A stretch of DNA of 51,645 bases from Candidatus Nanoarchaeia archaeon (GCA_028691765.1 JAQUYS010000002.1:1-51645), one strand, 5' to 3'. Positions 3,179 to 39,582 are shown, numbered from the stretch's first letter. Made by a program: numbers and translations. The notes: generated by a model from the sequence alone, not told the origin.

Positions 3179-4951
3179 ATGCCTATAAGAAGTCCAATTG
3201 TGTCTGTTTTGGGTCATGTCGACCATGGTAAATCTTCAGTTCTAGATGCAATTAGAGATTCTAATATTCTTGCTACTGAGGCCGGAGCAATTACTCAAGC
3301 TATTGGTGCGTCCATTGTTCCCATTGAAACTATTAAATGTAAATGTGGTGATTTGCTTCAAAAAATGAATATTTCTTTGAAAATTCCTGGGTTGTTGTTT
3401 ATAGATACTCCTGGTCACGCTGCTTTTACTTCTTTGAGAAAAAGAGGAGGAAGTTTGGCCGACATTGCGATTGTTGTCATTGATATAAATGAAGGTTTTA
3501 GACCTCAAACTTTTGAAGCGATTGATATTTTACGTGCGGCTAAAACTCCTTTCGTAATTGCTGCGAATAAAGTTGATCTTTCGCCTAATTATAGAATTCC
3601 TCGAGAAATAAATACTCCAATTTTAAAACAAATTAATGATCAAGAACCTAAAGTGATCACTCATATTGAAACTAAGTTATATGAACTTGTTGGTGCGATT
3701 CATGAACGGTTCGGCATATCTGCGGAACGTTTTGATAGGATAGATGATTTTACTAAACAAATCGCAATCATTCCTATTTCTGCTAAAATGAAATTGGGCT
3801 TGTCTGAATTATTAATGGTGATTAGTGCGTTAACTCAAAAATATCTTGAAAATAATTTACAAGTAGATGTTTCAGGTTATGCTAAAGGTTCTATTTTGGA
3901 AGTAAAAGAAGAACAAGGTCTTGGCACAACTCTTGACGTTATTATTTATAATGGTACTTTGAGTGTCGGAGATTGTGTTGTTATTGGCGGTATTGATACT
4001 CCGGTTGTTACTAAAGTTCGGGCTTTATTTGAACCTGCTCCGTTAAGTGAAATGAGAGATAAAAAATCTAATTTTAGTCCTGTTAAAAAAGTGGTCGCAG
4101 CGACTGGTGTTAAAATAAGTTGTCCTGATATTGATGATGTTCTTTCGGGGATGCCTATCAGGTCATGTGAGAATACACTCAAAGGCATTGAAGAAGCCAA
4201 AATTGAAGTTCAAAAAGAAATTGAAAACGCAAAAGTTAAAACTGTTCCTACAGGAATATTAATTAAAGCAGATAATATTGGAAGTCTTGAAGCCTTAGCA
4301 CATATTTTGGGAGAGAAAAAAATTCCTATTAGAAAAGCTTTAGTTGGACCGATATCTAAAAAAGATTTAATTGATGCAGAAGCTAGTTTTGAAGAAGACC
4401 GCTTAAATTCTGTGATTCTTGGATTTAATGTTCCAAATGAGAAATCTACTGAAACTGTAAAGATAATTACTAATGATGTTATTTACCACATTATTGAAGA
4501 TTATGAAAAATGGGTTGAAGATGAAAAGAAAAGAATAGAGCAAGAAAAATTAAAAGACTTATTTAAACCGTGTAAAGTTAAAGTTCTTCAGCATTGTATT
4601 TTTAGACAATCCAATCCTTGTATTGTTGGTGTGGATGTTCAAATGGGCATTCTAAAACAAAATATGGATATGATTAAAAAAGATGGTTCAAAATGTTCTC
4701 ATATAAAAAGTATCGGTTCTGGTAAAGATAATTTATCCTTTGCAGAGAAAGGAAGTCAAGTTGCAATTGGTTTACCAGGAGTTACTGCGGGACGACAATT
4801 AAATGAAGAGGATGTTTTATATTCGGATCTTAATGAAACTCAATATCGCGCATTAAGAGATAATAAGAAATTTTTAAGTGAAGATGACATTGAATTGTTG
4901 AAAGAAATTTCAGAGATTAAGAGAAAACAAAATCCACTTTGGGGTGCGTAA
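3179..4951 (+). CDS. infB: Translation initiation factor aIF5B (IF-2 family GTPase)
   Basis: RSPIVSVLGHVDHGKSS (G1), FIDTPGHAAF (G3), ANKVD (G4). The 590-aa length and domain order are typical of archaeal aIF5B. Confidence 0.95.
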   Translation: MPIRSPIVSVLGHVDHGKSSVLDAIRDSNILATEAGAITQAIGASIVPIETIKCKCGDLLQKMNISLKIPGLLFIDTPGHAAFTSLRKRGGSLADIAIVVIDINEGFRPQTFEAIDILRAAKTPFVIAANKVDLSPNYRIPREINTPILKQINDQEPKVITHIETKLYELVGAIHERFGISAERFDRIDDFTKQIAIIPISAKMKLGLSELLMVISALTQKYLENNLQVDVSGYAKGSILEVKEEQGLGTTLDVIIYNGTLSVGDCVVIGGIDTPVVTKVRALFEPAPLSEMRDKKSNFSPVKKVVAATGVKISCPDIDDVLSGMPIRSCENTLKGIEEAKIEVQKEIENAKVKTVPTGILIKADNIGSLEALAHILGEKKIPIRKALVGPISKKDLIDAEASFEEDRLNSVILGFNVPNEKSTETVKIITNDVIYHIIEDYEKWVEDEKKRIEQEKLKDLFKPCKVKVLQHCIFRQSNPCIVGVDVQMGILKQNMDMIKKDGSKCSHIKSIGSGKDNLSFAEKGSQVAIGLPGVTAGRQLNEEDVLYSDLNETQYRALRDNKKFLSEDDIELLKEISEIKRKQNPLWGA

Positions 4952-5263
4952 CTGAGAGCGGGATTCGGGAAGCGGATTTCAGCAAGGCATACAGCATTAA
5001 GTAAGGCATGCAGAATTTGGGATTCGTTACAGAATTCAATTGTGAATTAAACTCGAAGAGTTTATATTCGCCACGACTCGCCTAGTGTAACTGGCAGAGA
5101 AAACAAAATCCACTTTGGGGTGCGTAACTGAGAGCGGGATTCGGGAAGCGGAATGCAGAGTTCAGCAAGGCATGCGGAAGGCTGAAAGAGTGAAGCAGAA
5201 GACAGGAACCAGCACGCAGCGTTCAGTACAACATGCAGAATGTGGGATTCGTTACAGAATTCA
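4920..5263 (+). repeat. Imperfect tandem duplication of the infB 3' end plus a GC/purine-rich downstream spacer (copy A 4920-5038, copy B 5096-5263)
   Basis: 57 nt at 4920-4976 (last 10 infB codons, the stop, and ctgagagcgggattcgggaagcgga) recur exactly at 5096-5152. ttcagcaaggcat occurs at 4978-4990 and 5161-5173. atgcagaat(t/g)tgggattcgttacagaattca occurs at 5008-5038 and 5233-5263. Copy B carries extra inserts. Confidence 0.85.
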
Positions 5264-5273
5264 GAAGATTACA

Positions 5274-5747
5274 ATGATAAACAAAATAGAAGTCCTAAAT
5301 AGTAAAGATAAAAAACATTTTCTTCAAATAATTAAAGATATTTATGGAATCACTCAATTACTTGAATTTGTTTATTTTAAAGAAGAAGATAAATTATTTG
5401 TCGCTAATAAAGATTTATTTGATTTTGGTTTTGATGAATATCGAGTTAAATCTTTGGGTAATTATATTGGAACGTTTATGAAAGATGGGTTTAGATTTTC
5501 CATAGAAGGGTCTCAGCTATTTGGACAGTTAGCAAATAAAAATATTTTTGAAATAAACGAAGAAGAAAGAAATTTATGGATTTTAGGAGAAACTTTAAAT
5601 TGTGATAAATCTGATTTTGAAGATACTTATGTTTTAATTAAATGTGGTAATGATTTTATTGCGAGTGGAAAAATTAAAGATGGAAAAATTTTAAATTATA
5701 TTTCTAAGAATCGAAAATTAAAAAAAGTTTTTGAAAATGAGGATTAA
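5274..5747 (+). CDS. NIP7-like / PUA-domain RNA-binding protein (ribosome biogenesis-type)
   Basis: ORF track starts at 5115, but the first 53 codons lie in the GC-rich repeat. ATG 5274 gives a 157-aa AT-rich protein. SLGNYIGTF..., EGSQLF, YVLIKCGNDFIASGKIKDGKILNYISKNRKL resemble archaeal Nip7 (N-domain plus C-terminal PUA). Confidence 0.55.
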   Translation: MINKIEVLNSKDKKHFLQIIKDIYGITQLLEFVYFKEEDKLFVANKDLFDFGFDEYRVKSLGNYIGTFMKDGFRFSIEGSQLFGQLANKNIFEINEEERNLWILGETLNCDKSDFEDTYVLIKCGNDFIASGKIKDGKILNYISKNRKLKKVFENED

Positions 5748-9103: not shown

Positions 9104-10444
9104 TTATGCACCTAATGTCAATGCTTCTTTTAATCTGATTTTTATTGCTTTGTTATTTGGATGTTTTTTTGCCAAATCTAAAAATATTTTTAATGCCAAA
9201 GATTTGTTATTTGTTTTTATGGCTGAAATTCCTTCAAAATAACTTTTGTTTAATTCTTCTAGATTTTCAGTTGTTTGTTTGGGAAGGGATTTTATTTCTT
9301 CAACTTCTTTTATTTCAGGTATTTCTTTGGATTTTTTGAAATTTAATAGAGGATATGTGTTTTTTAATATGTTGTAAACTTTGTGTTTATATTTTTTATA
9401 TCCTGCAATATTTACTAATTCTTTTTTTATTTTGTTGAAAACGCTTTTTGCTTGTTCGTAATCTTTTTTAGTTATTAGAGATTTGAGTAAATTTAAGCGT
9501 TTGTCAATTATTTCTATGACCATGAAATTTTCATCTGGTGAAGAATCTGAAAGAGGAACGTTGGGAGCGGGGTTCTGGTTGCTGCGTTCTGGTTGCTGCG
9601 TTCTGGTTGCTGCGTTCTGGGTTCTGGAGACGGTTGTCAGATTATTTGTTTTATTTTCTTGAGAAAGTTTTTGTTTGAATTGAATATATTTTTCTCCAAA
9701 TTTTTGTTCTAGTTTCTGTTCTAGTTTCTGAATTTCATTCTTGGTATTTTCTTCCATTTCTTTTTTTACTTTTAGCAACATAGTTTCTCTTTCTTGTTTA
9801 TATTTTTCTTGTAAATTTTCATATTCTCTTTCGCTTTCTAATTCAAGTTTTTGTTTAAATTCGAGCATTAATTTTTCTCTTAGTTGTTTTTCTTTTAAAT
9901 CGGGCAAATTTATTGGAAAATTTAAACCTGAAGAAACTGAAAGTATTGGTGAGCCAGACATAACATTTACGGAAGACGACGTGCTGGAGGCAAGGTTCTG
10001 GTTGCTGCGTTCTGGTTGCTGCGTTCTGGTTGCTGGTTGTATTGGTGTTTTGTTTTTAGGTTGATCATCAAATCCTTCAAATCCGCTACTTCCTGATTCA
10101 ACTTCTTTTTCTTCGATTTGTTCATCTTCTAAATTTAAATTATGTTTGTTACAGAAATCTACAAGTTGAGAATACACTTTTTTTATGATTAAATCCATGG
10201 ATGCTCTTTTTGGACTATTTCTTGCTAATTTCCCATAGGCTCGTTTTGCATCTTTATAGATTAATTTTGCTTTTATTAATTCATTGTTTTCAAGAGCGGT
10301 TCTTATTTCTGCTTCATAATCTTTAACTCCAAATACTACTTCTTGACTATCGTAGGGTCTTGTTTTTACTTGAGATAACGAACGTTTAATTTCATCTAAG
10401 AAATTGTTTATGTCTTCTTCCAAAAATTCATTTATTGTAATCAT
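9104..10444 (-). CDS. Hypothetical coiled-coil protein with TPR-like ends and two GC-rich repeat insertions (pilus operon)
   Basis: 446-aa ORF abutting the ATPase start. It has a central Lys/Glu-rich coiled coil and helical-repeat-like termini. ATRTQQPERSNQN occurs twice, encoded by the 14-nt tandem repeats. Confidence 0.6.
   Translation of the reverse strand: MITINEFLEEDINNFLDEIKRSLSQVKTRPYDSQEVVFGVKDYEAEIRTALENNELIKAKLIYKDAKRAYGKLARNSPKRASMDLIIKKVYSQLVDFCNKHNLNLEDEQIEEKEVESGSSGFEGFDDQPKNKTPIQPATRTQQPERSNQNLASSTSSSVNVMSGSPILSVSSGLNFPINLPDLKEKQLREKLMLEFKQKLELESEREYENLQEKYKQERETMLLKVKKEMEENTKNEIQKLEQKLEQKFGEKYIQFKQKLSQENKTNNLTTVSRTQNAATRTQQPERSNQNPAPNVPLSDSSPDENFMVIEIIDKRLNLLKSLITKKDYEQAKSVFNKIKKELVNIAGYKKYKHKVYNILKNTYPLLNFKKSKEIPEIKEVEEIKSLPKQTTENLEELNKSYFEGISAIKTNNKSLALKIFLDLAKKHPNNKAIKIRLKEALTLGA
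9572..9627 (-). repeat. 14-nt tandem repeat gttctggttgctgc x3 plus two partial units (inside CDS 9104..10444)
   Basis: Units at 9572-9585, 9586-9599 and 9600-9613, then gttctgg twice (9614-9627). GC-rich against an AT-rich gene. Minus-strand translation is AATRTQQPERSNQN. Confidence 0.9.
9995..10035 (-). repeat. Second copy of the 14-nt tandem repeat tract (2 full units plus 13 nt)
   Basis: gttctggttgctgc at 9995-10008 and 10009-10022, then gttctggttgctg at 10023-10035. Encodes ATRTQQPERSNQN again. Confidence 0.9.
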
Positions 10445-29276: not shown

Positions 29277-29414
29277 TTGTTTAGAAATAGATAAATTTGT
29301 TAAATTGTTATTTTTAAAAAAACAAACTCCAAGGTTAATAAAACTTTATTTATTAACATCGTATTTCTTTATAAATGTAGATATTTTGTTTCCTTTATAA
29401 ACCTATGTTTTGTT

Positions 29415-29897
29415 TTATTCTATATATTCAGAAATTATTGTGATTAGTTTATCTTTGTTTTTCAAGGATTTTATTTCTTCAGCCAAATCTTTTAATTTTA
29501 AAACATCTTTAATCCATAATGAAAAATCGTTTGGAATGGAAGTTATATGGTGATTAAAAGTTGTTTCATCCATATCTTTTAGAAACGTCAATAATTCATG
29601 TATTGAACTAACTTTTGCTCCATTTTTTAATTTGAAATATAATTCTGGATGAATCGGACCATGAAGTTGTTTTTTTTCTAAGTTTTTTAATCTATCTTCA
29701 ACTTTAGATAAGTATCTTAAGAATTTTTCATTATCTTTTCTCTCTTGTTCTATTTTGTTTTTTAAGGAGTTCAGTTCAGATTCTACTTCTTTTTTTAGAT
29801 TTACTTTTACTTCGTATAAAAAGTCTTCAAACTTTTTAGAATCTGGTGTTGGTTGTTTTGATAATTTTATGAATTTCTCTTTTAAAGAATCTTCCAT
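29415..29897 (-). CDS. Hypothetical coiled-coil protein
   Basis: 160-aa ORF with a Lys/Glu-rich N-terminal half and a globular C-terminal half (SIHELLTFLKDMDETTFNHHI...). No family assigned. Confidence 0.5.
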   Translation of the reverse strand: MEDSLKEKFIKLSKQPTPDSKKFEDFLYEVKVNLKKEVESELNSLKNKIEQERKDNEKFLRYLSKVEDRLKNLEKKQLHGPIHPELYFKLKNGAKVSSIHELLTFLKDMDETTFNHHITSIPNDFSLWIKDVLKLKDLAEEIKSLKNKDKLITIISEYIE

Positions 29898-29980
29898 TTG
29901 TCTCCCCGTTGTTGATTAACTTTTTAGTCTATTTAAATATTTCGATTAAGTTTAAATAGTTTTCATTTGTACATTTTGTT

Positions 29981-30520
29981 ATGATTATTACTATTTGTGG
30001 TGATTTAGGCTCTGGAAAAAGTACTGTTGCGAAGATTTTAGCTTCTAAATTAGATTTTAAAAGAAAATCTGTCGGAGATTTCATGGGAGAACTCGCTTTG
30101 AAAAGAGGATTAAGTCTTAATGAATTGGGAGAAATAGCTAAACACGATGGTGGCGAGATAGATGCAATTTTAGATGAAGAACAAAGAAAGTTAAAAACGT
30201 CTAAAGAAAACATTATTTTTGATTCTCGTCTTGGATGGTTTTTTGTTCCTGATTCATTTAAAGTTTATTTGAAAGTGGATATTAATGTTGCAACTGAAAG
30301 AATTTTTAAAGATCATCGAGAAGATGAAAAGGAAAATGTTTCATTGGAAGAAACTAAAAAAAATATTATACTCCGAACAAATAATAATCTTGAACGATGG
30401 GACAACCATTACAAATGTGGAAGATATGATGATCCTAAACATTTTGATTTAATCATAGATACTACGAATATTTCTGCTGAAGAAGTTGCTGAAAAAATTA
30501 TTGAGAAATTAAGAATTTAA
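29981..30520 (+). CDS. cmk: Archaeal-type cytidylate (CMP) kinase
   Basis: MIITICGDLGSGKSTVAKILASKL (P-loop), SVGDFMGELALKRGLSLNELGEIA, IIFDSRLGWFF. The layout matches archaeal putative cytidylate kinases. Confidence 0.75.
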   Translation: MIITICGDLGSGKSTVAKILASKLDFKRKSVGDFMGELALKRGLSLNELGEIAKHDGGEIDAILDEEQRKLKTSKENIIFDSRLGWFFVPDSFKVYLKVDINVATERIFKDHREDEKENVSLEETKKNIILRTNNNLERWDNHYKCGRYDDPKHFDLIIDTTNISAEEVAEKIIEKLRI

Positions 30521-31015
30521 TAATTCTTTAAGTTTAGAAACAAATAAAATTGTTTTTAATTTTAAATCTTCAACTTCAGCTTTATCAAAATGTATTTTTG
30601 TTGAATAAGACGCATCTTCTCGTTTATTTTTTGTTTCAACATAGAATAAAATATCGTGATAATCCAATAAATTTGAAAATAACTTAAAGTCTTCTTTCGA
30701 TAGTTCTTTATCATAATACTCTTTTATTAAAATAACTAATGTTGCAAGGTGGTTTTTTGAAGCATATCCTTTGTATACTGTTGCTGCTAAAGCACAATGA
30801 TAACAAGCATAATAACAACCAACAACAATCCAATCGGAAAATTCAATATTTTGTTTTTGAATAAATCTTAAGTTATGTTCTGTTTTTGCTAAATGTCCTT
30901 TAATCTCTTCATCATCTATGATTTGTTTTTTTATTTTTTCAGATAATAAAAATTCCTTGAATTTTTTGTCTAAATTTTCTTTTGAAAAAAGTAAATTCAA
31001 ATCATATTCTTTCAT
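30509..31015 (-). CDS. HEPN-like domain protein (second HEPN-MNT module)
   Basis: 168 aa, helical. SDWIVVGCYYACYHCALAATVYKGYASKNHLAT and KREDASYS parallel ORF 14915..15376. It overlaps the MNT gene by 14 nt. Confidence 0.55.
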   Translation of the reverse strand: MKEYDLNLLFSKENLDKKFKEFLLSEKIKKQIIDDEEIKGHLAKTEHNLRFIQKQNIEFSDWIVVGCYYACYHCALAATVYKGYASKNHLATLVILIKEYYDKELSKEDFKLFSNLLDYHDILFYVETKNKREDASYSTKIHFDKAEVEDLKLKTILFVSKLKELLNS

Positions 31016-31682
31016 TATTTAAAACCTCATAATAATAATTCTGATTATAGACTGGATAGCCTGAAAAAATTGCAGATTGTATTACATGATCTCGTTTCAT
31101 TTTTAGTTCTTCAATAAATTCTTTATAAGTAATTTGAAATGTACTTATATTCATACTTGTTAAAGCACAAACTTCTTCTTCAGAATTTTTTGGATTTATT
31201 TTTGTATTTGTAACTAATAAAATATCGATGTCGGATTTTTGAGTAAATGTTTCTTTTGCTGTTGAACCAAATAAAATTACGAATACGGGCATTTGGGGTA
31301 AATTTTGAATGTATGTTTTTATTGCATTTTTTCTTAATAAGGGTAGAGAATTTAATTTTTTTAAATCAAATAAAGAAAATATTTGTGGGAGTTTTTCTTT
31401 GGATATTTTAAATTTTTTTAAATTTCCTTCTTTTTCAAAAATTAAAATTTTATCTTTCAACAATGTGTTTAAATGTCTTGATAAAGGACCTTCTTTTAAA
31501 TTTATTTGTCTTGAAAGCTCTCTTAAGTGTATGGATTTATTTTTATTAGCATAAAAACATTTAAATATTTTTTCATATGTTTGGTTTATTATTGTTCTCA
31601 TTTTTAAAACAATTGTTTCAAATTTTGAAACATTTATATAGTTTTCGTTTTTTGAGTAGGATTTTGAGAGTAATTTGTTCAT
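31002..31682 (-). CDS. Minimal nucleotidyltransferase (MNT) with N-terminal winged-helix domain (second module)
   Basis: ILFGSTAKETFTQKSDIDILLV (GS...DxD). The wHTH-like segment is IHLRELSRQINLKEGPLSRHLNTLLKDKIL. Confidence 0.75.
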   Translation of the reverse strand: MNKLLSKSYSKNENYINVSKFETIVLKMRTIINQTYEKIFKCFYANKNKSIHLRELSRQINLKEGPLSRHLNTLLKDKILIFEKEGNLKKFKISKEKLPQIFSLFDLKKLNSLPLLRKNAIKTYIQNLPQMPVFVILFGSTAKETFTQKSDIDILLVTNTKINPKNSEEEVCALTSMNISTFQITYKEFIEELKMKRDHVIQSAIFSGYPVYNQNYYYEVLNNERI

Positions 31683-31700
31683 AAAACTAGTTTAATAAGA

Positions 31701-31744
31701 ACTGTTATTTATAATCGAGTGAAGAATTTCCGGAAAGTTTCCGG
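31701..31744 (-). promoter_or_regulatory. Conserved promoter/operator block: TATA-like attataaata plus a TTTCCGGAAA palindrome upstream of MNT2
   Basis: actgttatttataatcgagtgaagaatttccggaaagtttccgg is 34/44 identical (ungapped) to 47416-47459. It sits at the same distance (38 vs 39 nt to the gaagaattt core) from a minus-strand start codon. Confidence 0.5.
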
Positions 31745-31751
31745 CAAAAAA

Positions 31752-33131
31752 TCAATTCTCGAAGAAGGCTTTGTAAAGTAAATATGCGCAATAAATATCT
31801 ACTTTTGAAGTAACTTCGCATGGTGAATGCATTCCCATTACACAAGGTCCTACATCTACGCAATCCATTCCATATTTGGACATAAACATTGCTATTGTTC
31901 CGCCGCCACCAATATCGATTTTTCCTAGTTCTCCTATTTGATGAGGGATTTTATTTTGAACTAAAATTTTTCTTATGAAGTTCATATATTCTGCACTTGC
32001 ATCATTTGAAGAATATTTTCCTCCTGAACCACCATATTTTTCTATTGAAACTCCTCTTCCTAAATGTGATGCATTGTCTTTATCGTGTACTTCTTTGTAT
32101 ATTGGATCCATGGCTGCAGTTACGTCTGCAGAAATTGAACGAGAATTTTCAAATAATTTTCCTGTTCCTATTTTTAGATTTGTTTTTTCTATATATTCTT
32201 GAGCGAAATTTTGTAGTATGAAACTGTCTGCACCTACGTCTCCTGCTGATCCTATTTCTTCTTTGTCTACGAAAAAAGTTATGGCTGTGTTTTTTGTTTG
32301 TTTTGTTTTTAATAATGCCATTAACGATGTGAATACGCACACTTTATCATCTTGTCCATATGCACCTATTAATGATCTGTCTAAACCTATGTCTGTGGGT
32401 TTTAATGATGGAACGAAGCTAAATTCTGCGAATCTAAAATCTTCTTCGGATACGTGGTATTGTTCTTTTAATATTTTTAAAACGTTGAGTTTTATTTGAT
32501 TTTTTGTTGCGTTTTCATTAATAGGAATGTTTCCAAAAAGTATTCTTAATTGTTCTGCTTCGACTACTTTCCTACCAACTTTCTCCATTTGGTCTCTTGC
32601 TAAATGAGGAAGTAAATCTGAGATTATAAATTTTGGTTCGTCTTCTTTTTCTCCGATACTTAAAATTATTTTTTCTTTTTTGGTGTAGACGATTCCTTGT
32701 AAGGATAATGGAAGATTAACCCAATGATATTTTTTTATTCCTCCATAATAATGTGTTTGTAATAGGGCTAATTCTGAATCTTCATATACTGGGTTTGGTT
32801 TTAGATCCAATCTTGGTGAATCAGTGTGACTTCCAATTATGTTTAATGAATCTAATTCTTCTCCAACTATTCCTGCTATGATTACTTTTTCTTTTATTAA
32901 TTTGTAAAATTTGTCTCCTTTTTTTAAGTTCTTAATTAAATGAAATTCTTTAAAATTTTGTTTTTTTAATGTTGTGAGTATGTTTTGAATGCATGCTCTT
33001 TCTGTTTTACTTTCTGAAAGAAATTTTTTGTAAGATTCTGTAAATTTAAATATTTCTTCTTTGTTTTTGAAAGAATTCCACGCAGAATTATGTTTCATCA
33101 ATAGATTGTCTTGTTTCGCCATAAAATTCAA
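31752..33131 (-). CDS. M18-family aminopeptidase (aspartyl aminopeptidase-like)
   Basis: IIGSHTDSPRLDLKPNP, YGQDDKVCV, DKEEIGS, SADVTAAMDP and MHSPCE match M18 metallopeptidase motifs. An alternative start MAKQDN lies 3 codons downstream. Confidence 0.85.
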   Translation of the reverse strand: MNFMAKQDNLLMKHNSAWNSFKNKEEIFKFTESYKKFLSESKTERACIQNILTTLKKQNFKEFHLIKNLKKGDKFYKLIKEKVIIAGIVGEELDSLNIIGSHTDSPRLDLKPNPVYEDSELALLQTHYYGGIKKYHWVNLPLSLQGIVYTKKEKIILSIGEKEDEPKFIISDLLPHLARDQMEKVGRKVVEAEQLRILFGNIPINENATKNQIKLNVLKILKEQYHVSEEDFRFAEFSFVPSLKPTDIGLDRSLIGAYGQDDKVCVFTSLMALLKTKQTKNTAITFFVDKEEIGSAGDVGADSFILQNFAQEYIEKTNLKIGTGKLFENSRSISADVTAAMDPIYKEVHDKDNASHLGRGVSIEKYGGSGGKYSSNDASAEYMNFIRKILVQNKIPHQIGELGKIDIGGGGTIAMFMSKYGMDCVDVGPCVMGMHSPCEVTSKVDIYCAYLLYKAFFEN

Positions 33132-33210
33132 ATTTCTAACAAATTTATAAAATCTTTGAAATTTGGGTTAGCAAAAGCTTTTTAAATAAAAGGGCGATTC
33201 TTGAGCTTGT

Positions 33211-33312
33211 GGACTCGTGGCCTAGCTTGGATAAGGCGACAGCCTTCTAAGACCTTATTTGGTTAACGGAGCAAGCTGTAGATCGAGGGTTCAAATCCCT
33301 CCGGGTCCGCCA
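33211..33312 (+). tRNA. tRNA-Arg(UCU) with a 24-nt canonical (37/38) intron, CCA encoded
   Basis: Acceptor ggactcg:cgggtcc, D arm gcct-agcttggata-aggc, anticodon stem acagc:gctgt with loop ctTCTa[intron 33250-33273]a, T arm gaggg-ttcaaat-ccctc, discriminator g, then cca. Confidence 0.88.
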
Positions 33313-33359
33313 TTTATGTTATTCTTTATAGTTGGATGTTATTAGATGTAGTTCTTCGT

Positions 33360-33454
33360 GACACGGAGGTAGGGAACAAAGTGAGTGTTTCTTTGGGTCC
33401 GCCACATATTCTTAGTTTTGATTTAGAAGGACACGGAGGTAGGGAACAAAGTGA
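33360..33454 (+). repeat. Two perfect 25-nt direct repeats (gacacggaggtagggaacaaagtga) flanking a 45-nt spacer that contains a copy of the tRNA-Arg 3' end
   Basis: Repeats at 33360-33384 and 33430-33454. The spacer contains gggtccgcca (33395-33404), identical to the tRNA 3' end at 33303-33312. Confidence 0.85.
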
Positions 33455-33456
33455 TT

Positions 33457-34467
33457 TTAAGACATAAAATGAGCTATTTTTTCTGTGTTTTTGAATTGTT
33501 CCAATATTATTTTTATTATTGCTGTAAGAGGTACTGCTAAGATCATTCCTCCAACACCCCATAACCAATGCCAGAAGAATAATGAAACTATTATTACTAA
33601 AGGAGACATTTTGAGAACGGAACCTTCCAACATAGGTTCTAATATGTTACCGAACACGATTTGTACTGTTGTTAAAACTATTGTTAAAGCTATGAATGGA
33701 TACCCCCAACCTGTTTCTAAAAAATAAATTAGAGCGACTAAAACTACTGCGAAAATTGAACCTATATTTGGTATGTAGTTAAATAAAAATATGATTATTG
33801 CTAAGGATACGGCAAATTCTGAATTAAAAAGATGTAATGCCAATAAACTAAATAATGCAGTTCCTAAACTTATACTTGTTTTAGTCCACAAGTATTTTCT
33901 TACACTTTCTTTGGTTTTATTTATTGTTTGAGTAATGCTTTCTTTCTTTTTTTCAGTGTATAATTTTCCTAATTTACTTCCTAATGAATTGTAGAAAGGA
34001 ACTATGAATATTAAGAATATTATTATTAACATTATTTCATACATAATTCTTCCAGTTGTTTGTAATACTGGTGTTATTAATTTATTCATATTTTGTAGAT
34101 TTATTAATTCTTCAAGTTTTATTGTTTGTCCTGTAAATTCTAATTTTGATGAAAATGATTGAGATAAAGAAGTTATTTTTGTTTGATAATCAGGAAGATG
34201 TTTTGAAATTTGGTTTGCTTCGGAAACAACTATGGATGTTAAGGATATTAAAATAACTAATAATAGCATAATTGTTATTGTGAGTATTATGTATGCAGGA
34301 ATACCTATTTTTTTGGAATATTGAACTAGGGGGGTAAATAAAACTGCCAGGATGATTGCAAATGCTAACGGTCTTAGGAATGAAGAAAAGACTTTTAATG
34401 TTATGATTACTAAAAATAAAGTAATAATTAAGCTAGAATACTCTACTAACTCAGTCTTTCTCACCAT
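33457..34467 (-). CDS. AI-2E family transporter (PerM/UPF0118-like permease), second copy
   Basis: 336-aa polytopic protein. NYIPNIGSIFAVVLVAL, GNILEPMLEGSVLKMSPLVIIVSLFFWHWLWGVGGMILAVPLTAIIKI. Confidence 0.8.
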   Translation of the reverse strand: MVRKTELVEYSSLIITLFLVIITLKVFSSFLRPLAFAIILAVLFTPLVQYSKKIGIPAYIILTITIMLLLVILISLTSIVVSEANQISKHLPDYQTKITSLSQSFSSKLEFTGQTIKLEELINLQNMNKLITPVLQTTGRIMYEIMLIIIFLIFIVPFYNSLGSKLGKLYTEKKKESITQTINKTKESVRKYLWTKTSISLGTALFSLLALHLFNSEFAVSLAIIIFLFNYIPNIGSIFAVVLVALIYFLETGWGYPFIALTIVLTTVQIVFGNILEPMLEGSVLKMSPLVIIVSLFFWHWLWGVGGMILAVPLTAIIKIILEQFKNTEKIAHFMS

Positions 34468-34550
34468 GTATTACTTGGGGAATTACTTATTTAAATAGGT
34501 TTCCACCAGAATTGGAAGAATTTAAAAAATAAACTGATTAACTTTAATTC

Positions 34551-35624
34551 ATGGATATTAAATTTGAATTTGTTAATTCACCTAAAAAATTGGATGAAGC
34601 TTGTTCTGAATTGCGAAAAGAGGATATTTTGGGTATTGATTTGGAATGTGAAAACAATCTTCATTATTATGGTGTGCGGATTGCTTTGATTCAAATTTCA
34701 AGTAAAACTAAAAATTATATTTTTGATACTATTGGTTTGTTGAATATTGATCCTTTGATTAAGATTTTTGAAAATGAAAAAATAGTTAAGATTTTTCATG
34801 ATGTTTCTTTCGATTTTCGTATGTTGACTATGCAATACAATTGTGTTCCTAAGAATGTGTATGATACTCAACTTGCTGTGGCTTTGCTTGGTTCTGCTCA
34901 AATGGGTTTGGGGGAGTTACTAGAAAAGTATTTTAGTGTTAAAAAGGAATGTAAATTTCAAATGGCTGATTGGGTTAGAAGACCTATTTCTGAAGATATG
35001 TTGGAGTATGCAATTCATGATACGTTACATTTAATTGAATTGAAGGAAATTTTAGATGAGGAGTTAAAAAAACAAGGAAAGTTAGCTTGGGCTCATGAAG
35101 AATTTAAGAACTTTGAAAAGAAGGATTGGACTTATGTTCAAGGAAGTTTTGAAGATATACGTGGAATTAAAGCTTTAAGTGATAAGGAAAGGGCGGTTGC
35201 ATTCGAGATATATAAATTAAGGGAGAAGTTGGCTGAGAAAGTTAATCGTCCTATTCATTTTGTTGTGGGAAATAAGTTGTTGTTGGAATTAGCATTACAT
35301 CCTTTGAAGACTTTAAAGCAATGGAAAGATATTAAAGGAGTTCATCCTATTGTGCGATTAAAGGCGAATGAGTTTTTGGTAGCGACTTTGAAGGGTTTGA
35401 ATAAAGAGTATAAGATTGAAGTTGAGAAACGGAAAAGATATAATCAAACTCAAATTGATATGTTTACTTCTTTGAATGAAATTAAGGAAAAATTATCTGA
35501 AAAATATAAGATTCCTTCTCATTTAATTATGAATAAAGAGCAAATGAAGAAGATTGTTTTGGAAGGGAATTATAATTGTTTATCTAATTGGCAAAGAGAA
35601 TTAGTTGAAACAATTAATAAATAA
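34551..35624 (+). CDS. RNase D-like DEDDy 3'-5' exonuclease with HRDC domain
   Basis: Exo motifs GIDLECE, FHDVSFDFRML, YAIHDTLHL, followed by the HRDC-like AVAFEIYKLREKLAEKVNRPIHFVVGNKLLLELA. Confidence 0.8.
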   Translation: MDIKFEFVNSPKKLDEACSELRKEDILGIDLECENNLHYYGVRIALIQISSKTKNYIFDTIGLLNIDPLIKIFENEKIVKIFHDVSFDFRMLTMQYNCVPKNVYDTQLAVALLGSAQMGLGELLEKYFSVKKECKFQMADWVRRPISEDMLEYAIHDTLHLIELKEILDEELKKQGKLAWAHEEFKNFEKKDWTYVQGSFEDIRGIKALSDKERAVAFEIYKLREKLAEKVNRPIHFVVGNKLLLELALHPLKTLKQWKDIKGVHPIVRLKANEFLVATLKGLNKEYKIEVEKRKRYNQTQIDMFTSLNEIKEKLSEKYKIPSHLIMNKEQMKKIVLEGNYNCLSNWQRELVETINK

Positions 35625-35631
35625 AAAATGG

Positions 35632-37074
35632 TTAATAATTCTTAGCGAAATAAATTTTATATTTAGCTTTTTCACCGCAACAAACACATTTGGAATTTGG
35701 TTCAGGTTTGTCTTCTCCTGTTGGCCGACATCTTGTTGTTGCTCCGCCTGTATCTGTTTTGATTTGTTCTTCACACTCTTTGTTTCCACAATGATGTGCT
35801 AAAACTAATTTCTTTTCTTCTATTGCGTTCTTTAATTCGTCATATGTGGTGGCTTTTGTTTTTCTTTCTTCTACTTTTTTTCTAGCCTTTTCCAGCATTT
35901 CTTTTTGTATTTGTTTTAGTTTTTTATCTACAAAAGCGACTAAATCATTTAATGGTACAATTTCTTTTTGTCCGTTAAATCTTGAAACTACGACACAAGA
36001 TTGTTTTTCTAAATCTTTTGGTCCTAATTCTATTCTTAATGGAACTCCTTTTAATTCCCATTCGTTGAATTTGAATCCAGGGGATTTATCTGCTCGGTCA
36101 TCTAAGTGTGCATTGAATTTTTTTAATTTTTTATGAATTTCTTTTGCTTTCTTCATAACTTCAGGAGATTTATCTTGTGCAATTGGAACTATAACTGCTT
36201 TTATTGGTGCCATTTTTGGAGGTAGGACTAATCCTTTATCATCTCCATGCACCATAACTAATGCTCCTAAAAGTCTTGTTGAAAATCCCCAACTGGATTG
36301 CCAAGGTGTATGTTCTTCGCCATCTTCACCATGAAATGAAATGTTAAATGCTTTTGCGAAACCTTGTCCTAAATTATGTGAGGTTCCTGATTGTAATGCT
36401 TTTCCATCAGGCATAAATGATTCAAAGGTATATGTTCTTATTGCTCCCGGAAATGTTTCTTTTTTGGATTTTATTCCTGTGATTGCAGGTATTGCTAAAA
36501 GTTCTTCAGACATTTTTGCATATTCTTTGAGCATCATTTTAGTTTCTTTTTCGCATTCTTTTTCTGTTGAATATACGCAATGTCCTTCTTGCCATAAGAA
36601 TTCTCTTGATCGTAAAAATATTTTTACATCGCTAATTTCCCATCTAACTATGTTTGCCCATTGATTTATTCGCAGGGGCAAATCTCTATGTGAACGAATC
36701 CATTTTGAATAGGAGTCATACATTATGGTTTCTGATGTTGGTCTTATTGCTAGTCTTTCCTCGTTATCTGATTTTGTTGAAATCCAAGCTACTTCAGGTG
36801 CAAAACCCTCCACATGTTGTGCTTCTCTATGAAAAAATGATTCTGGTATGAATAATGGAAAATATGCATTTTGAACATTTAATTTATTTAATCTTTGGTT
36901 AAAATAATCCACTATTGATTGCCATAATGAATATCCTAATGGACGTATAACTGCACAACCTCTAACTACAGAATAATCTGCAAGTTCGCTTTTAACAACA
37001 ACTTGAGAATACCATTCTGGCATGTTCTCTTCTTTTTTGACAGTTATACCCATTTCGTTTGCCATTATTTGCAC
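35632..37074 (-). CDS. proS: Prolyl-tRNA synthetase, archaeal/eukaryotic type
   Basis: Class II motifs (AIRPTSET, FLWQEGH, GTSHNLGQ), an anticodon-binding domain, and a C-terminal Zn-binding domain ending CVCCGEKAKYKIYFAKNY. Confidence 0.93.
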   Translation of the reverse strand: MQIMANEMGITVKKEENMPEWYSQVVVKSELADYSVVRGCAVIRPLGYSLWQSIVDYFNQRLNKLNVQNAYFPLFIPESFFHREAQHVEGFAPEVAWISTKSDNEERLAIRPTSETIMYDSYSKWIRSHRDLPLRINQWANIVRWEISDVKIFLRSREFLWQEGHCVYSTEKECEKETKMMLKEYAKMSEELLAIPAITGIKSKKETFPGAIRTYTFESFMPDGKALQSGTSHNLGQGFAKAFNISFHGEDGEEHTPWQSSWGFSTRLLGALVMVHGDDKGLVLPPKMAPIKAVIVPIAQDKSPEVMKKAKEIHKKLKKFNAHLDDRADKSPGFKFNEWELKGVPLRIELGPKDLEKQSCVVVSRFNGQKEIVPLNDLVAFVDKKLKQIQKEMLEKARKKVEERKTKATTYDELKNAIEEKKLVLAHHCGNKECEEQIKTDTGGATTRCRPTGEDKPEPNSKCVCCGEKAKYKIYFAKNY

Positions 37075-37161
37075 CGTTTTATATGTGGAGTTTGAGCTTA
37101 TTTAAATATATATTCTTTAAAATGGCAATGTTTTTAAATTTATGCTTGTGCTTAAAGTTAT

Positions 37162-37611
37162 ATGGCTACAGAATTAAATTCTTTTTTAGAGAAACACAAC
37201 TTACCTAGTTTGAATGATTTGGAAAGTGAACTTGGTCGATTACATATTGATGATGAAGATATTATTTTATTTTTAATTAAGAAATTGAGTGATAAAGTTA
37301 ATGTTTATATTGATTTTTTAAGTGATCGATTACAACCTGATTCTGATTTGATTTCTATGCAAGAAGCGAATATGTTTGATGGAAATGAACGAAAGGAAAT
37401 GTTTTATTTGTTGAAGAACATAATTTATCAAGACAGAGTATTTATGAAAATTAATTTGAACGGAACTGAGGGAGATAAGATTAATTATTTTAAAGAATAT
37501 TTTAATAATTGGTCTGTATTAAAATTAAAATTGGTTCCTTTTGTTCAAAAAGCAATAAATGTTTGGAAATTAAAAGATGATGATGTTAAATTTGAGGCGT
37601 ATTTTGGATGA
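37162..37611 (+). CDS. Hypothetical protein
   Basis: 149-aa ORF overlapping the adk start by 4 nt (atga). No family recognised. Confidence 0.5.
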   Translation: MATELNSFLEKHNLPSLNDLESELGRLHIDDEDIILFLIKKLSDKVNVYIDFLSDRLQPDSDLISMQEANMFDGNERKEMFYLLKNIIYQDRVFMKINLNGTEGDKINYFKEYFNNWSVLKLKLVPFVQKAINVWKLKDDDVKFEAYFG

Positions 37612-38237
37612 ATAATTATATTATTTTTGGTCCACCTGGTAGTGGAAAGGGAACTTTGTCTAATTTGATTTCTGCTAAATTGAAAATTCCTCATATTTCT
37701 CTTGGGGAAATTTTGAGAAAGAGGGCAACTAAAAAGGATTCTTTGAGTAAGCAGATTTCTCAAGTTATTGAATCAGGAAATTTGTTGCCTGATGAATTAG
37801 TTAATAAAATTTTAGCTAAACGATTTGAATTAAAAGATGTTAAGAAAGGTTTTATTATTGATGGTTATCCTAGACATGTTGGTCAAGTTGATTTTTTGCT
37901 TGGTTTGACTGAAATAGATCGTGTTGTGGTTTTAAAAATTCCTGAAGAAGATATAATTTCTAGGTTAAAGGGTAGGAGAATTTGTCCTAAATGTGGTGCA
38001 GAATATCATATTACTGCAATACCTCCTAAGGTTAAAGGAATTTGTGATAAGTGCGGGACTAAATTAATTAAGCGTTCTGATGAAAACAAAATAAAACATA
38101 GATTAGAAGTTTATCATAAGGAAACTGAACCAGTTATTAAATATCTTAAGAAAAAAGGGATTCAAATTAAATTTGTTCCTGGTGGATGGGATTTGAAAAC
38201 TGAAAATGAAAAAATCATCGATAAATCTATAAATTAA
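37608..38237 (+). CDS. adk: Adenylate kinase (long form with Zn-binding lid)
   Basis: P-loop IIFGPPGSGKGT, IIDGYPR, and lid CPKCGAEYH...CDKCG. Confidence 0.9.
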   Translation: MNNYIIFGPPGSGKGTLSNLISAKLKIPHISLGEILRKRATKKDSLSKQISQVIESGNLLPDELVNKILAKRFELKDVKKGFIIDGYPRHVGQVDFLLGLTEIDRVVVLKIPEEDIISRLKGRRICPKCGAEYHITAIPPKVKGICDKCGTKLIKRSDENKIKHRLEVYHKETEPVIKYLKKKGIQIKFVPGGWDLKTENEKIIDKSIN

Positions 38238-39262
38238 TTTTCTAGAGAAAGTTTGTTTTTCGTTAAAATACTTTTTATGACTATTGTTGCATAACTTCCG
38301 CTTCCTAATTCGAATTTTAATTTTTGTTTTTTCTTTTCTGTAAATTCTTCGTCATCTTCTGGCGGAAATAATTCTAAATTTTTTACTTGGAAAAATGCAT
38401 CTCTTTCTCCTCCTTCTAAGGAAAATTCGGGAAGGCTTTTTATTAAGAAATCTCTTGCAACTATATTTTTTGTTTGAAGTAAATCTTCGTATCCTTCAGT
38501 CATATAGCCTATTAAAGGTAATGAATTTATTGGGGGGTAGATGTCTGCGAAAAGCATTTTTCCTTCTGAATAATTTAATTCATATGTTTGTTTTGTGAAT
38601 TGGTTTATTTTTTGTGATAATAATTCGTTAAAGAAATAGCTTTGTACTGAGTGTATGAAAAAAAGTGTTGTTTTTTTTGGAAGTATTTTTAATGCACCTA
38701 TAAAATCGTTTGGATGTTTTTGTAAATGTTCTTCTATTTTTTCTTTGAAATCTCCATCGGTTTGTGAAAGTAAGTTTATTGCTTCTTTGAAGTTTTTTTG
38801 TATTAAAAATAACCCTATTTGTAGGTTTGCTGTTGAAAATCTTTGTTCATCAAAATAATTCGGAATTAATAATTCGTTTGTTTCTTTTAGAGTTATGTCT
38901 TGAGGTAAATCTCGTAAAACTATTTCGAATTCATTCCCTTCTAAATCGCCCAATTTCATTTCTGTTTTTGTTGTTCCAACATATTCTAATTCTATATCTT
39001 TTAATTTTAAGTTATCTATTTTTTCTTTTGAACAATTTTTTATTGAAATATATTGGTAAGTTATTCCATTTTTATCTTTGGTTCCTGCGTATGAGATGAA
39101 TTTTCTTGGTAAATGCAAAGATCTTGTTAATTGCATTACTGCTCTTTCGGTGGTGTAGTTTGTTTTCTTCAATAAATATATTTTATGAGGTCCTTCTTCT
39201 AAATTTATATTTGTTTTTTCTTTGACTATGAAGTCTTGAAGTAAATGTTTTATTTTAACCAT
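38234..39262 (-). CDS. truD: tRNA pseudouridine synthase TruD/Pus7 family
   Basis: DFIVKE near the N-terminus, ISYAGTKDKNGITYQ (the GxKD catalytic Asp motif), NYFDEQRF, and 342-aa length. Confidence 0.85.
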   Translation of the reverse strand: MVKIKHLLQDFIVKEKTNINLEEGPHKIYLLKKTNYTTERAVMQLTRSLHLPRKFISYAGTKDKNGITYQYISIKNCSKEKIDNLKLKDIELEYVGTTKTEMKLGDLEGNEFEIVLRDLPQDITLKETNELLIPNYFDEQRFSTANLQIGLFLIQKNFKEAINLLSQTDGDFKEKIEEHLQKHPNDFIGALKILPKKTTLFFIHSVQSYFFNELLSQKINQFTKQTYELNYSEGKMLFADIYPPINSLPLIGYMTEGYEDLLQTKNIVARDFLIKSLPEFSLEGGERDAFFQVKNLELFPPEDDEEFTEKKKQKLKFELGSGSYATIVIKSILTKNKLSLEN

Positions 39263-39315
39263 TCTATTTGAAAAATAGTAAAAGTTTTTAAAGTGTTTGT
39301 ATTTTATATATTTGT

Positions 39316-39536
39316 GGACTTGTAGCCTAGTATGGAAACGGAATGCAGGAAACAGAATTCAGAAGGCGGTTTCTGCGTTTTTGTATAAATAGGGCGACAG
39401 CCTCCTAAGCCGGAATGCAGTATTTGGAATGCAGATTGCTGTATTCGGTTAACGGTGTAAGCTGTAGGTCGGGAGTTCAAATCTGTGTTCTGTACAGTGA
39501 ATTCAGAATGCAGGGAAATTCTTCCCAAGTCCGCCA
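39316..39536 (+). tRNA. tRNA-Arg(CCU) interrupted by three introns (D-loop 39336-39388, anticodon loop 39408-39459, T-loop/stem junction 39483-39520), CCA encoded
   Basis: The exons align block by block with tRNA-Arg(UCU): ggacttg ta gcct agtatgg|ata gggc g acagc ctCCTa|a gctgt aggtc gggag ttcaaat|cttcc caagtcc g cca. After removing the three inserts a 78-nt cloverleaf remains. Intron borders are ambiguous by 1-2 nt. Confidence 0.78.
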
Positions 39537-39582
39537 TTTTTATTAGTAATGCTTATAAATTATCTATAATTATTCTATGTAG

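Follow-up and report, generated by a model that had tools for sequence, protein, structure and literature searches.

Can a tRNA gene that is interrupted at three separate places still specify a working tRNA in an AT-rich archaeon of the DPANN group? The question is raised by a 221-nt block at positions 39316-39536 of a 51,645-nt stretch of DNA from Candidatus Nanoarchaeia archaeon (GCA_028691765.1, JAQUYS010000002.1:1-51645), which we analyzed as a whole and refer to below as the window. An original prediction had described this block as a tRNA-Arg(CCU) gene carrying one intron each in the D-loop, the anticodon loop and the T-arm. The sequence of the window and of its relatives suggests that 39316-39536 is very probably a functional tRNA-Arg(CCU) gene that would be spliced three times, at introns of the bulge-helix-bulge (BHB) type located at 19/20, 37/38 and 59/60. 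We favor this reading because its exons are constrained, its intron sites recur among relatives, the central helices of its predicted splicing motifs are register-specific, and its cloverleaf is intact.

Three inserts interrupt a tRNA-Arg(CCU) cloverleaf

Removal of the three inserts from the window locus leaves a canonical cloverleaf with a sense anticodon. Positions 39316-39335, 39389-39407, 39460-39482 and 39521-39536, when joined, give 78 nt that ARAGORN folds as tRNA-Arg(cct). The acceptor stem of 7 bp is perfect, and the D-stem, anticodon stem and T-stem have 4, 5 and 5 bp, respectively, with one G-U pair in the T-stem. The T-loop reads TTCAAAT, and the encoded CCA follows a discriminator G. 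Coordinates, stems and CCA are as the original prediction gave them, save for a detail of the third intron. This is indeed a 38-nt intron in the T-arm, but its borders, which had been placed at 39483-39520, are ambiguous by +/-1 base, and the BHB geometry of the orthologues described below favors 39482-39519 (59/60), with an identical product.

With these borders, and with all features on the plus strand, exon 1 (39316-39335) carries the 5' strands of the acceptor and D-stem and the D-loop up to G19, and is 100% identical in two close relatives, L001 and L082. Intron 1 (39336-39388, 53 nt) follows in the D-loop at 19/20 and has a relaxed BHB. Exon 2 (39389-39407) contains the rest of the D-loop, the 3' strand of the D-stem, the 5' strand of the anticodon stem and the anticodon loop to A37, with the anticodon CCU at 39403-39405. 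Intron 2 (39408-39459, 52 nt) occupies the canonical 37/38 site, with the anticodon stem as its outer helix. Exon 3 (39460-39481) runs from A38 through the 3' strand of the anticodon stem, the variable loop and the 5' strand of the T-stem to A59 in the T-loop, where intron 3 (39482-39519, 38 nt) is inserted at 59/60 with the 5-bp T-stem as its outer helix. Exon 4 (39520-39536) supplies U60, the 3' strands of the T-stem and acceptor, the discriminator G and the CCA at 39534-39536.

All four exons are colinear on one strand within 221 nt, which excludes a split (trans-spliced) or permuted tRNA gene. We also rejected self-splicing group I or group II introns, since the introns are only 38-53 nt long and no Rfam match was found in 39316-39536, either at the gathering score or with E up to 1.

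The surroundings of the block contain candidate expression signals. At 39280-39292 (+), a purine-rich AAAAG resembling a B recognition element (BRE) is followed by the TATA-like TTTTTAAA; this element is centered ~27 nt before the first tRNA base, is identical in L001 and L082, and constitutes a putative archaeal promoter. Five T residues, read from the sequence, stand immediately after the CCA (39537-39541, +) and likely act as an archaeal transcription stop.

The description of a GC-rich block in an AT-rich, DPANN-like genome also held: GC content is 54% in the exons and 41% in the introns, compared with 30% for the genome as represented by the window. So did the likeness to the tRNA-Arg(UCU) paralogue at 33211-33312 (+), which has one 24-nt intron at 37/38 (33250-33273); after splicing, the two tRNAs are identical at 64 of 78 positions.

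In its unspliced form, the locus is called neither by ARAGORN, with intron mode on or off, nor by Rfam at the gathering score or with E up to 1. As a test against chance, we used the intron-less tRNA-Arg(CCU) of another relative, L031, in a spliced alignment that allowed long gaps, applied to both strands of the whole window in 410 chunks. The locus gave the best score (79), tRNA-Arg(UCU) scored 71 and a tRNA-Ser 28, against a background with a median of 2.5 and a maximum of 18. The match of the locus to tRNA-Arg(CCU) is far beyond chance. Within the 51.6-kb window no second tRNA-Arg(CCU) was found, either by this alignment or in a stem-loop scan, which detected no intron-less CCU anticodon arm and whose matches allowing introns were noise.

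Exons are conserved and introns vary between close relatives

The conserved divergent neighbor of the locus, truD (tRNA pseudouridine synthase D; 38234-39262, minus strand), served as a handle for finding orthologous tRNA loci; the tRNA starts 54 nt from the truD start codon. Relatives of truD were taken from a collection with one genome per species and belong to metagenome-assembled genomes (MAGs) labeled Woesearchaeota, Nanoarchaeota or Nanoarchaeia. Some 'binchicken' MAGs among them bear a Methanosarcinales label, which we took as unreliable. The truD protein of L001 is 95% identical to that of the window, and those of the other relatives are 46% identical or less.

L001 is ~90.5% identical to the window over 6.2 kb and has the same three inserts at the same places. 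Between the two, the exons differ at 1 of 78 positions and the introns at 21 of 144 (Fisher p = 0.0008); for comparison, 40 of 342 third codon positions of truD differ. The sole exon difference lies in exon 2, at the unpaired position 26. When the alignment of intron 2 is read by eye, its hairpin pairing is kept through two double substitutions (C-G to U-A and G-C to A-U) together with three one-sided changes, and a bulged G is lost too. Intron 3 has a single difference from L001, located in its hairpin loop.

The second close relative, L082, is a single Joint Genome Institute (JGI) contig, Ga0172381_10001961, obtained from a metagenome scan with exon 1. It is 98.3-99.7% identical to window positions 29363-39410. 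Within the gene it covers exons 1 and 2, with an intron between them at the same D-loop site, and it stops at the start of intron 2. Its intron 1 (L082 11727-11771) differs from that of the window (39336-39388) at 22 of 54 aligned columns, compared with 0 of 68 in the adjacent flank and exons. The window and the more distant L001 differ at only 8 of 54 columns in this intron. Exons are thus kept beside introns that are free to vary, as is expected of a functional interrupted gene, and these comparisons support purifying selection on the exons relative to the introns.

Orthologues next to truD use the same three sites

A tRNA-Arg(CCU) adjoins truD in ~25 fetched Woesearchaeota loci, with an intron number from 0 to 3. 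In the 20 loci that we tabulated, introns are found at the same three sites (19/20, 37/38 and 59/60) as in the window. The gene has no intron in L031, L033 and L039. A single intron lies in the D-loop in L028, in the anticodon loop in L016 and L026, and in the T-loop in L005, L007, L015, L048 and L054, as it probably does in L004, L008 and L046, where the available sequence ends within the locus. Two introns are combined as D-loop plus T-loop (L021), D-loop plus anticodon loop (L023 and L062) or anticodon loop plus T-loop (L002, L006, L009, L010 and L018). Besides the window and L001, three introns are present in L041 (13, 24 and 34 nt) and in L013 (93, 19 and at least 90 nt, the contig ending within the T-loop intron). 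The exception outside this tabulation is L034, with a 20-nt intron near position 29/30, and L044 seems to have two other non-canonical introns. Intron sequences are unrelated across distant lineages, and their lengths range from 13 to 149 nt. The original prediction had called a three-intron gene in such a genome unusual; it is so against a published record centered on Thermoproteales, but within this clade the layout recurs, with three introns in the distant L041 and L013 and one or two in most orthologues.

The exons of the orthologues also evolve as a cloverleaf. In 19 spliced orthologues, 100% of 399 cloverleaf cells pair and 13 of 21 pairs have changed on both sides, compared with 29-45% pairing when the spliced sequences are slid by one to three columns; the 3' exons were located partly via T-stem and acceptor pairing, and by eye, which tilts this covariation count toward structure for those two stems.

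The complete T-loop (59/60) introns of L002, L005, L006, L009, L010, L018 and L048 are 87-149 nt long. Together with the incomplete ones of L004 and L008, they contain recurring hairpin modules, e.g. CAGCTTCTTGCTAAGCTGGCACGCA, which sometimes occur twice per intron and are gained or lost between genomes. Many of these introns have no inner helix beside the 5' cut and take the bulge-helix-loop (BHL) form.

The 75-nt intron at 37/38 of L026 carries two strings, GATGATGA and TGATGAGA, that resemble box C of C/D guide RNAs, a box that occurs in tRNA-Trp introns of Euryarchaeota. For the introns of the window we rejected a C/D-box guide RNA, as no C or D boxes were seen by eye. The 3' ends of the genes vary as well: in the window, tRNA-Arg(UCU) and tRNA-Arg(CCU) each have a 3' CCA encoded in the gene (33274-33312 and 39520-39536), and in the tRNA-Arg(CCU) orthologues of other Woesearchaeota loci the discriminator base leads directly into a T-run.

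Predicted splicing motifs

In the standard geometry, which we applied to each junction, a central helix of 4 bp separates two bulges of 3 nt, each cut after its second base, and an outer and an inner helix flank this core. Below, H denotes the number of central-helix pairs out of 4, X the base pairs of the outer helix and Y those of the inner helix. The canonical intron of tRNA-Arg(UCU) served as a control for this geometry and has a 4/4 central helix (CUUC:GGAG). The geometry was also checked on strict motifs present in orthologues, namely the anticodon intron of L062 and the T-loop intron of L015.

A relaxed BHB (hBH, HBh' or BHL), with cut sites 4 bp apart and the correct mature sequence, can be drawn at all three window junctions. 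At intron 1 (H4, X4, Y2), the outer helix CCUA:UAGG uses a shifted D-stem register, the central helix GUAU:GUAU consists of two G-U and two A-U pairs, the bulges are GG/A and AA/A (the slash marking the cut), and the inner helix is weak, with 2 contiguous bp and more if bulges are included. At intron 2 (H3, X5, Y1), the outer helix is the anticodon stem of 5 bp, the central helix CUCC:GGUG contains a U-U mismatch and both bulges are UA/A; the 5' cut faces UAAC in a 3x4 internal loop, beyond which lies a long hairpin. At intron 3 (H3, X5, Y10), the T-stem of 5 bp is the outer helix, the central helix UUCA:GGAA contains an A-G mismatch, the bulges are AA/U and AU/U, and the inner helix is formed by 10 bp (CUGUGUUCUG:CAGAAUGCAG). 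The folds constrained to form the BHB lie 4.3, 0.7 and 3.9 kcal/mol above the local minimum free energy for introns 1, 2 and 3, respectively. The idea of three BHB-type introns is thus supported, with a qualification: every junction has a drawable BHB-like fold, and at both non-canonical sites the central helix forms in one register, but no junction of the window has the strict motif.

This register-specificity is most evident across genomes. Counting the orthologues and the window together, 7 of 7 D-loop introns and 10 of 11 T-loop introns have 4/4 central-helix pairs at the predicted register, the exception being the window itself with 3/4. For twelve shifted registers the mean number of pairs was 0.1 to 3.0. 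Among these, no shift of up to 3 bases gave 4/4 in any locus, and shifts of up to 6 bases did so in one D-loop locus only, at +4. The exon loop bases and the central helix also change together: base 17 forms an A-U pair in the window and C-G elsewhere, and base 57 is found in A-U, G-C or G-U pairs. At 37/38 the signal is weaker, the central helix having 2.7 pairs on average. In several orthologues the intron at this site ends in GAAG, a perfect partner for a UCU-type loop, which hints at a shared history with tRNA-Arg(UCU).

By analogy with established archaeal BHB introns (PMC4033280, PMC4090602, PMC5829648), we propose that a single transcript of ~221 nt would be made from the BRE/TATA-like promoter and would end at the T-run. 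The exon-intron junctions would pair locally in each of the three arms. Bases of the tRNA stem would provide the outer helix, the loop bases just before the 5' cut would pair with the last intron bases as the 4-bp central helix, and most of the intron would form the inner hairpin. The archaeal splicing endonuclease, EndA, would then cut two bases into each 3-nt bulge, and an RtcB-type ligase would connect the four exons, yielding a 78-nt tRNA with its CCA in place, while the introns would be released.

Weighing the functional reading against its alternatives

Several observations weigh against a functional gene spliced in this way, in addition to the tilt in the covariation count that comes from placing 3' exons by pairing. 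The strict hBHBh' motif, which requires a fully paired 4-bp central helix between two 3-nt bulges and at least 2 bp in each flanking helix, is absent from all three window junctions. In the central helix, intron 1 has two G-U pairs, intron 2 a U-U mismatch and intron 3 an A-G mismatch. Intron 2 has its 5' cut in the 3x4 internal loop and not in a clean bulge, and the BHB folds of introns 1 and 3 are both ~4 kcal/mol above the local minimum free energy. Furthermore, neither EndA nor RtcB was found in the window, where Pfam scans covered 51 open reading frames (ORFs), or in any fetched locus, and tblastn of the window and fetched loci with an approximate M. jannaschii EndA query gave no match.

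Those energies and the weak central helices of introns 1 and 3 would be accommodated if EndA cut only the 37/38 intron at a BHB, and the D-loop and T-loop inserts were removed by another route, were removed in an obligatory order after refolding, or were partly retained. The D-loop motif, which requires a shift of the D-stem (CCUA:UAGG in place of GCCU:GGGC), points the same way, as does the finding that EndA of Methanopyrus kandleri is far less efficient on a D-loop intron than on the canonical one (PMC5829648). We nevertheless consider such processing very unlikely, as a register-specific 4/4 helix at exactly both sites is predicted for EndA and for no other known pathway, and as D-loop and T-loop inserts, if kept, would break the contacts between G18/G19 and the T-loop. 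To our knowledge, no other mechanism removes inserts of 38-53 nt from an archaeal tRNA.

Still a little less likely, in our view, is a decaying pseudogene, in which three insertions would have left no functional tRNA and AGG would be read by tRNA-Arg(UCU) or by another copy. Such decay would be compatible with relaxed motifs, with the rejection of the locus by standard tRNA finders, and with the rarity of AGG, which accounts for 30 of 15,182 codons in the window ORFs (2.0 per 1000, or ~7% of arginine codons), compared with 297 for AGA. The original prediction had named this outcome as the one that would overturn it. Against it, a BHB-like structure can be drawn at all three junctions, and in a relative with ~10% genome divergence the exons are near-invariant (1/78) compared with the introns (21/144). 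The cloverleaf is perfect once spliced, the inserts are placed exactly at the three sites where many orthologues have register-specific BHB helices, and the promoter-like element, the CCA and the T-run are intact. Relaxed exon constraint, broken stems and lost expression signals, by which a pseudogene would be recognized, are not seen here. AGG is in use in the window ORFs, and a tRNA-Arg(CCU) is plausibly useful to the host; how far the host needs it would turn on wobble reading by tRNA-Arg(UCU) and on any other copies.

An assembly or binning artefact, with the 221-nt block as a chimeric join of tRNA fragments and repeats, is hardly credible: the L082 contig does end inside the gene at the start of intron 2, suggesting that the locus disturbs assemblers, but in an independent assembly, L001, the same flanks enclose the whole gene with its three introns, in a third one, L082, they adjoin exon 1, intron 1 and exon 2, and distant genomes have the same architecture.

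Sequence blocks shared among the introns

Intron 2 is homologous in its 3' part to the tRNA-Arg(UCU) intron, and the two have TATT(C/T)GGTTAACGG in common (p about 0.0005). Introns 1 and 2 both have CGGAATGCAG at bases 4-13 (p about 0.008 by shuffling), and GAATTCAGAA(G/T)GC is common to introns 1 and 3 (p about 0.002). The 221 nt of the gene hold four copies of GAATGCAG, which occurs five times in the whole window, where about one copy is expected. Plus-strand CAG-CAG spacings of exactly 7 nt are similarly confined: all nine fall either in the tRNA gene or in 4952-5276, a GC-richer, partly duplicated, non-coding segment after the aIF5B gene (3179-4951). Intron 1 and this segment share the 10-mer CGGAATGCAG (5149-5158) and the 14-mer ACAGAATTCAGAAG (5254-5267).

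The shared blocks, the CAG spacings of 7 nt and the hypervariable intron 1 fit fast intron turnover through duplication, slippage or exchange between lineages, a reading to which we assign a low probability. A bolder proposal, which we regard as unlikely, is that the three introns form one young family (GGAATGCAG/CAG-heptad) with fast turnover that spreads or regrows inside the gene by transposition, gene conversion or 7-nt CAG slippage, and that the same process across the Woesearchaeales could hide enough tRNA genes to account for those 'missing' in complete Nanobdellota genomes. We considered whether a diversity-generating retroelement makes intron 1 hypervariable and rejected this: when the alignment with L082 is inspected by eye, the differences are not limited to adenines, and the Pfam matches of the window ORFs include no reverse transcriptase.

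The segment after aIF5B is itself repetitive. The end of aIF5B, i.e. its last 32 nt including the stop codon and ~90 nt downstream, is duplicated, with 97% identity between 4920-4982 and 5096-5158 and 85% between 4987-5038 and 5212-5263. CAG-led heptamer runs are carried by 4920-5276, and the ORF called at 5115 probably has its true start near 5277. We considered 4952-5276 as a hidden multi-intron RNA gene and rejected it, having found no Rfam hit, no tRNA-like exons by eye and only a weak fold signal (z = -1.9). Heptamers also occur in an ORF at 9104-10444 (-), to which no function is assigned: two in-frame tandem copies of (CAGCAAC CAGAACG)x3, at 9585-9625 and 10000-10040, form GC-rich islands in an AT-rich gene, and the heptamer CAGCAAC is also found in intron 1 of L082.

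Relation to known multi-intron tRNA genes

There is ample documentation of two or three BHB introns in single archaeal tRNA genes, chiefly from Thermoproteales, and three is given as the maximum (PMC8450103, PMC4033280, PMC3218864). Other archaea listed with multiple-intron tRNAs are N. equitans, M. kandleri, Korarchaeum and ARMAN-1/2 (PMC4033280). In the searchable literature we found no description of tri-intronic tRNAs, or of introns at these sites, in Woesearchaeota. The only tRNA-intron survey including this group that we found there is that of Kaneta et al., in which a single Woesearchaeota genome was scanned with tRNAscan-SE (PMC5829648).

The window gene resembles those of Thermoproteales such as Pyrobaculum, Thermofilum and Caldivirga, which have up to three BHB introns per gene, at 37/38 and at non-canonical sites, with relaxed motifs (PMC8450103, PMC4033280, PMC3218864). 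Those genes too are missed by standard tRNA finders and have related intron sequences at different sites, which were read there as transposition. The host, however, is a 30% GC, Woesearchaeota-type DPANN archaeon and not a hyperthermophilic crenarchaeon, and here the related blocks are common to the three introns of one gene. Several DPANN lineages have an alpha4-type EndA with an 'L3' loop, as opposed to the (alpha-beta)2 type with a crenarchaeal loop (PMC5829648), and by this comparison the endonuclease of the window host is probably of another type than the Thermoproteales enzyme.

Among the DPANN, ARMAN-1/2 (Micrarchaeota) and Nanoarchaeum equitans also have non-canonical or multiple tRNA introns, which are cut by endonucleases of broadened specificity (PMC4033280, PMC5829648). 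The ARMAN enzyme, however, is of the epsilon2 type, and N. equitans combines an (alpha-beta)2 enzyme with split (trans-spliced) tRNAs, whereas the window exons are colinear in one 221-nt locus. The tRNA-Glu(UUC) gene of M. kandleri likewise has a D-loop and a canonical 37/38 intron in one gene; its D-loop intron is at 20b/21, with a relaxed HBh' motif, and both introns were spliced in vitro (PMC5829648). It differs from the window gene in having two introns instead of three, none of them in the T-loop, and a D-loop site other than 19/20. In one eukaryotic system, too, tRNA genes contain ectopic introns and as many as three introns each, with junctions that resemble a BHB (PMC3728597, PMC4090602), but its endonuclease is differently composed and many of its genes are permuted, which the window gene is not.

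Our reading would extend the known tri-intronic BHB architecture to the Woesearchaeota, a mesophilic, AT-rich DPANN group in which the three sites recur across a clade and the introns are present or absent from genome to genome. The layout is expected in kind but new for the lineage, and it is useful for annotating DPANN tRNA sets. Loop-bearing alpha4-type DPANN EndAs have been linked to more tRNA gene disruption, and the relaxed junctions described here offer a set of substrates for testing the broad specificity proposed for these enzymes (PMC5829648).

When Rfam and ARAGORN were run on the fetched loci, intron-less orthologues were detected at 63-70 bits and one orthologue with a single canonical intron at 53 bits. 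Calls for L028 and L048 were low-scoring and truncated, and every gene with two or three introns was missed. Since such finders miss genes with multiple or non-canonical introns or give them wrong borders, tRNA counts for DPANN genomes will come out too low. Kaneta et al. took incomplete tRNA sets as a sign of disrupted genes that had escaped detection (PMC5829648). In 208 complete Nanobdellota genomes the median is 35 tRNAs per genome (range 26-54), with lineage-specific 'missing' tRNAs for which split genes have been proposed (2026 preprint, 10.64898/2026.05.13.725050). Hidden multi-intron genes are a simpler candidate explanation and one that is directly checkable.

Genomic context

The window, at 30% GC, is from a Woesearchaeota-type (DPANN) archaeon. 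It encodes the archaeal markers GatD/GatE, an archaeal-type prolyl-tRNA synthetase (ProRS), a family B DNA polymerase, aIF5B and FttA/aCPSF1, as well as a proteasome subunit and deoxyhypusine synthase.

Comparison with the close relatives showed two further differences in this region. L082 contains ~1.8 kb of extra DNA (L082 2383-4215) without a counterpart at window positions 31745-31753; in window coordinates, it falls between the genes at 31002-31682 and 31752-33131. The ProRS of the window (35632-37074, minus strand) is only 38% identical as a protein to the ProRS at the matching position in L001 and L082, and the DNA flanking it is 90-99% identical to that of these relatives. These identities suggest that a distant ProRS allele has replaced the gene in place.

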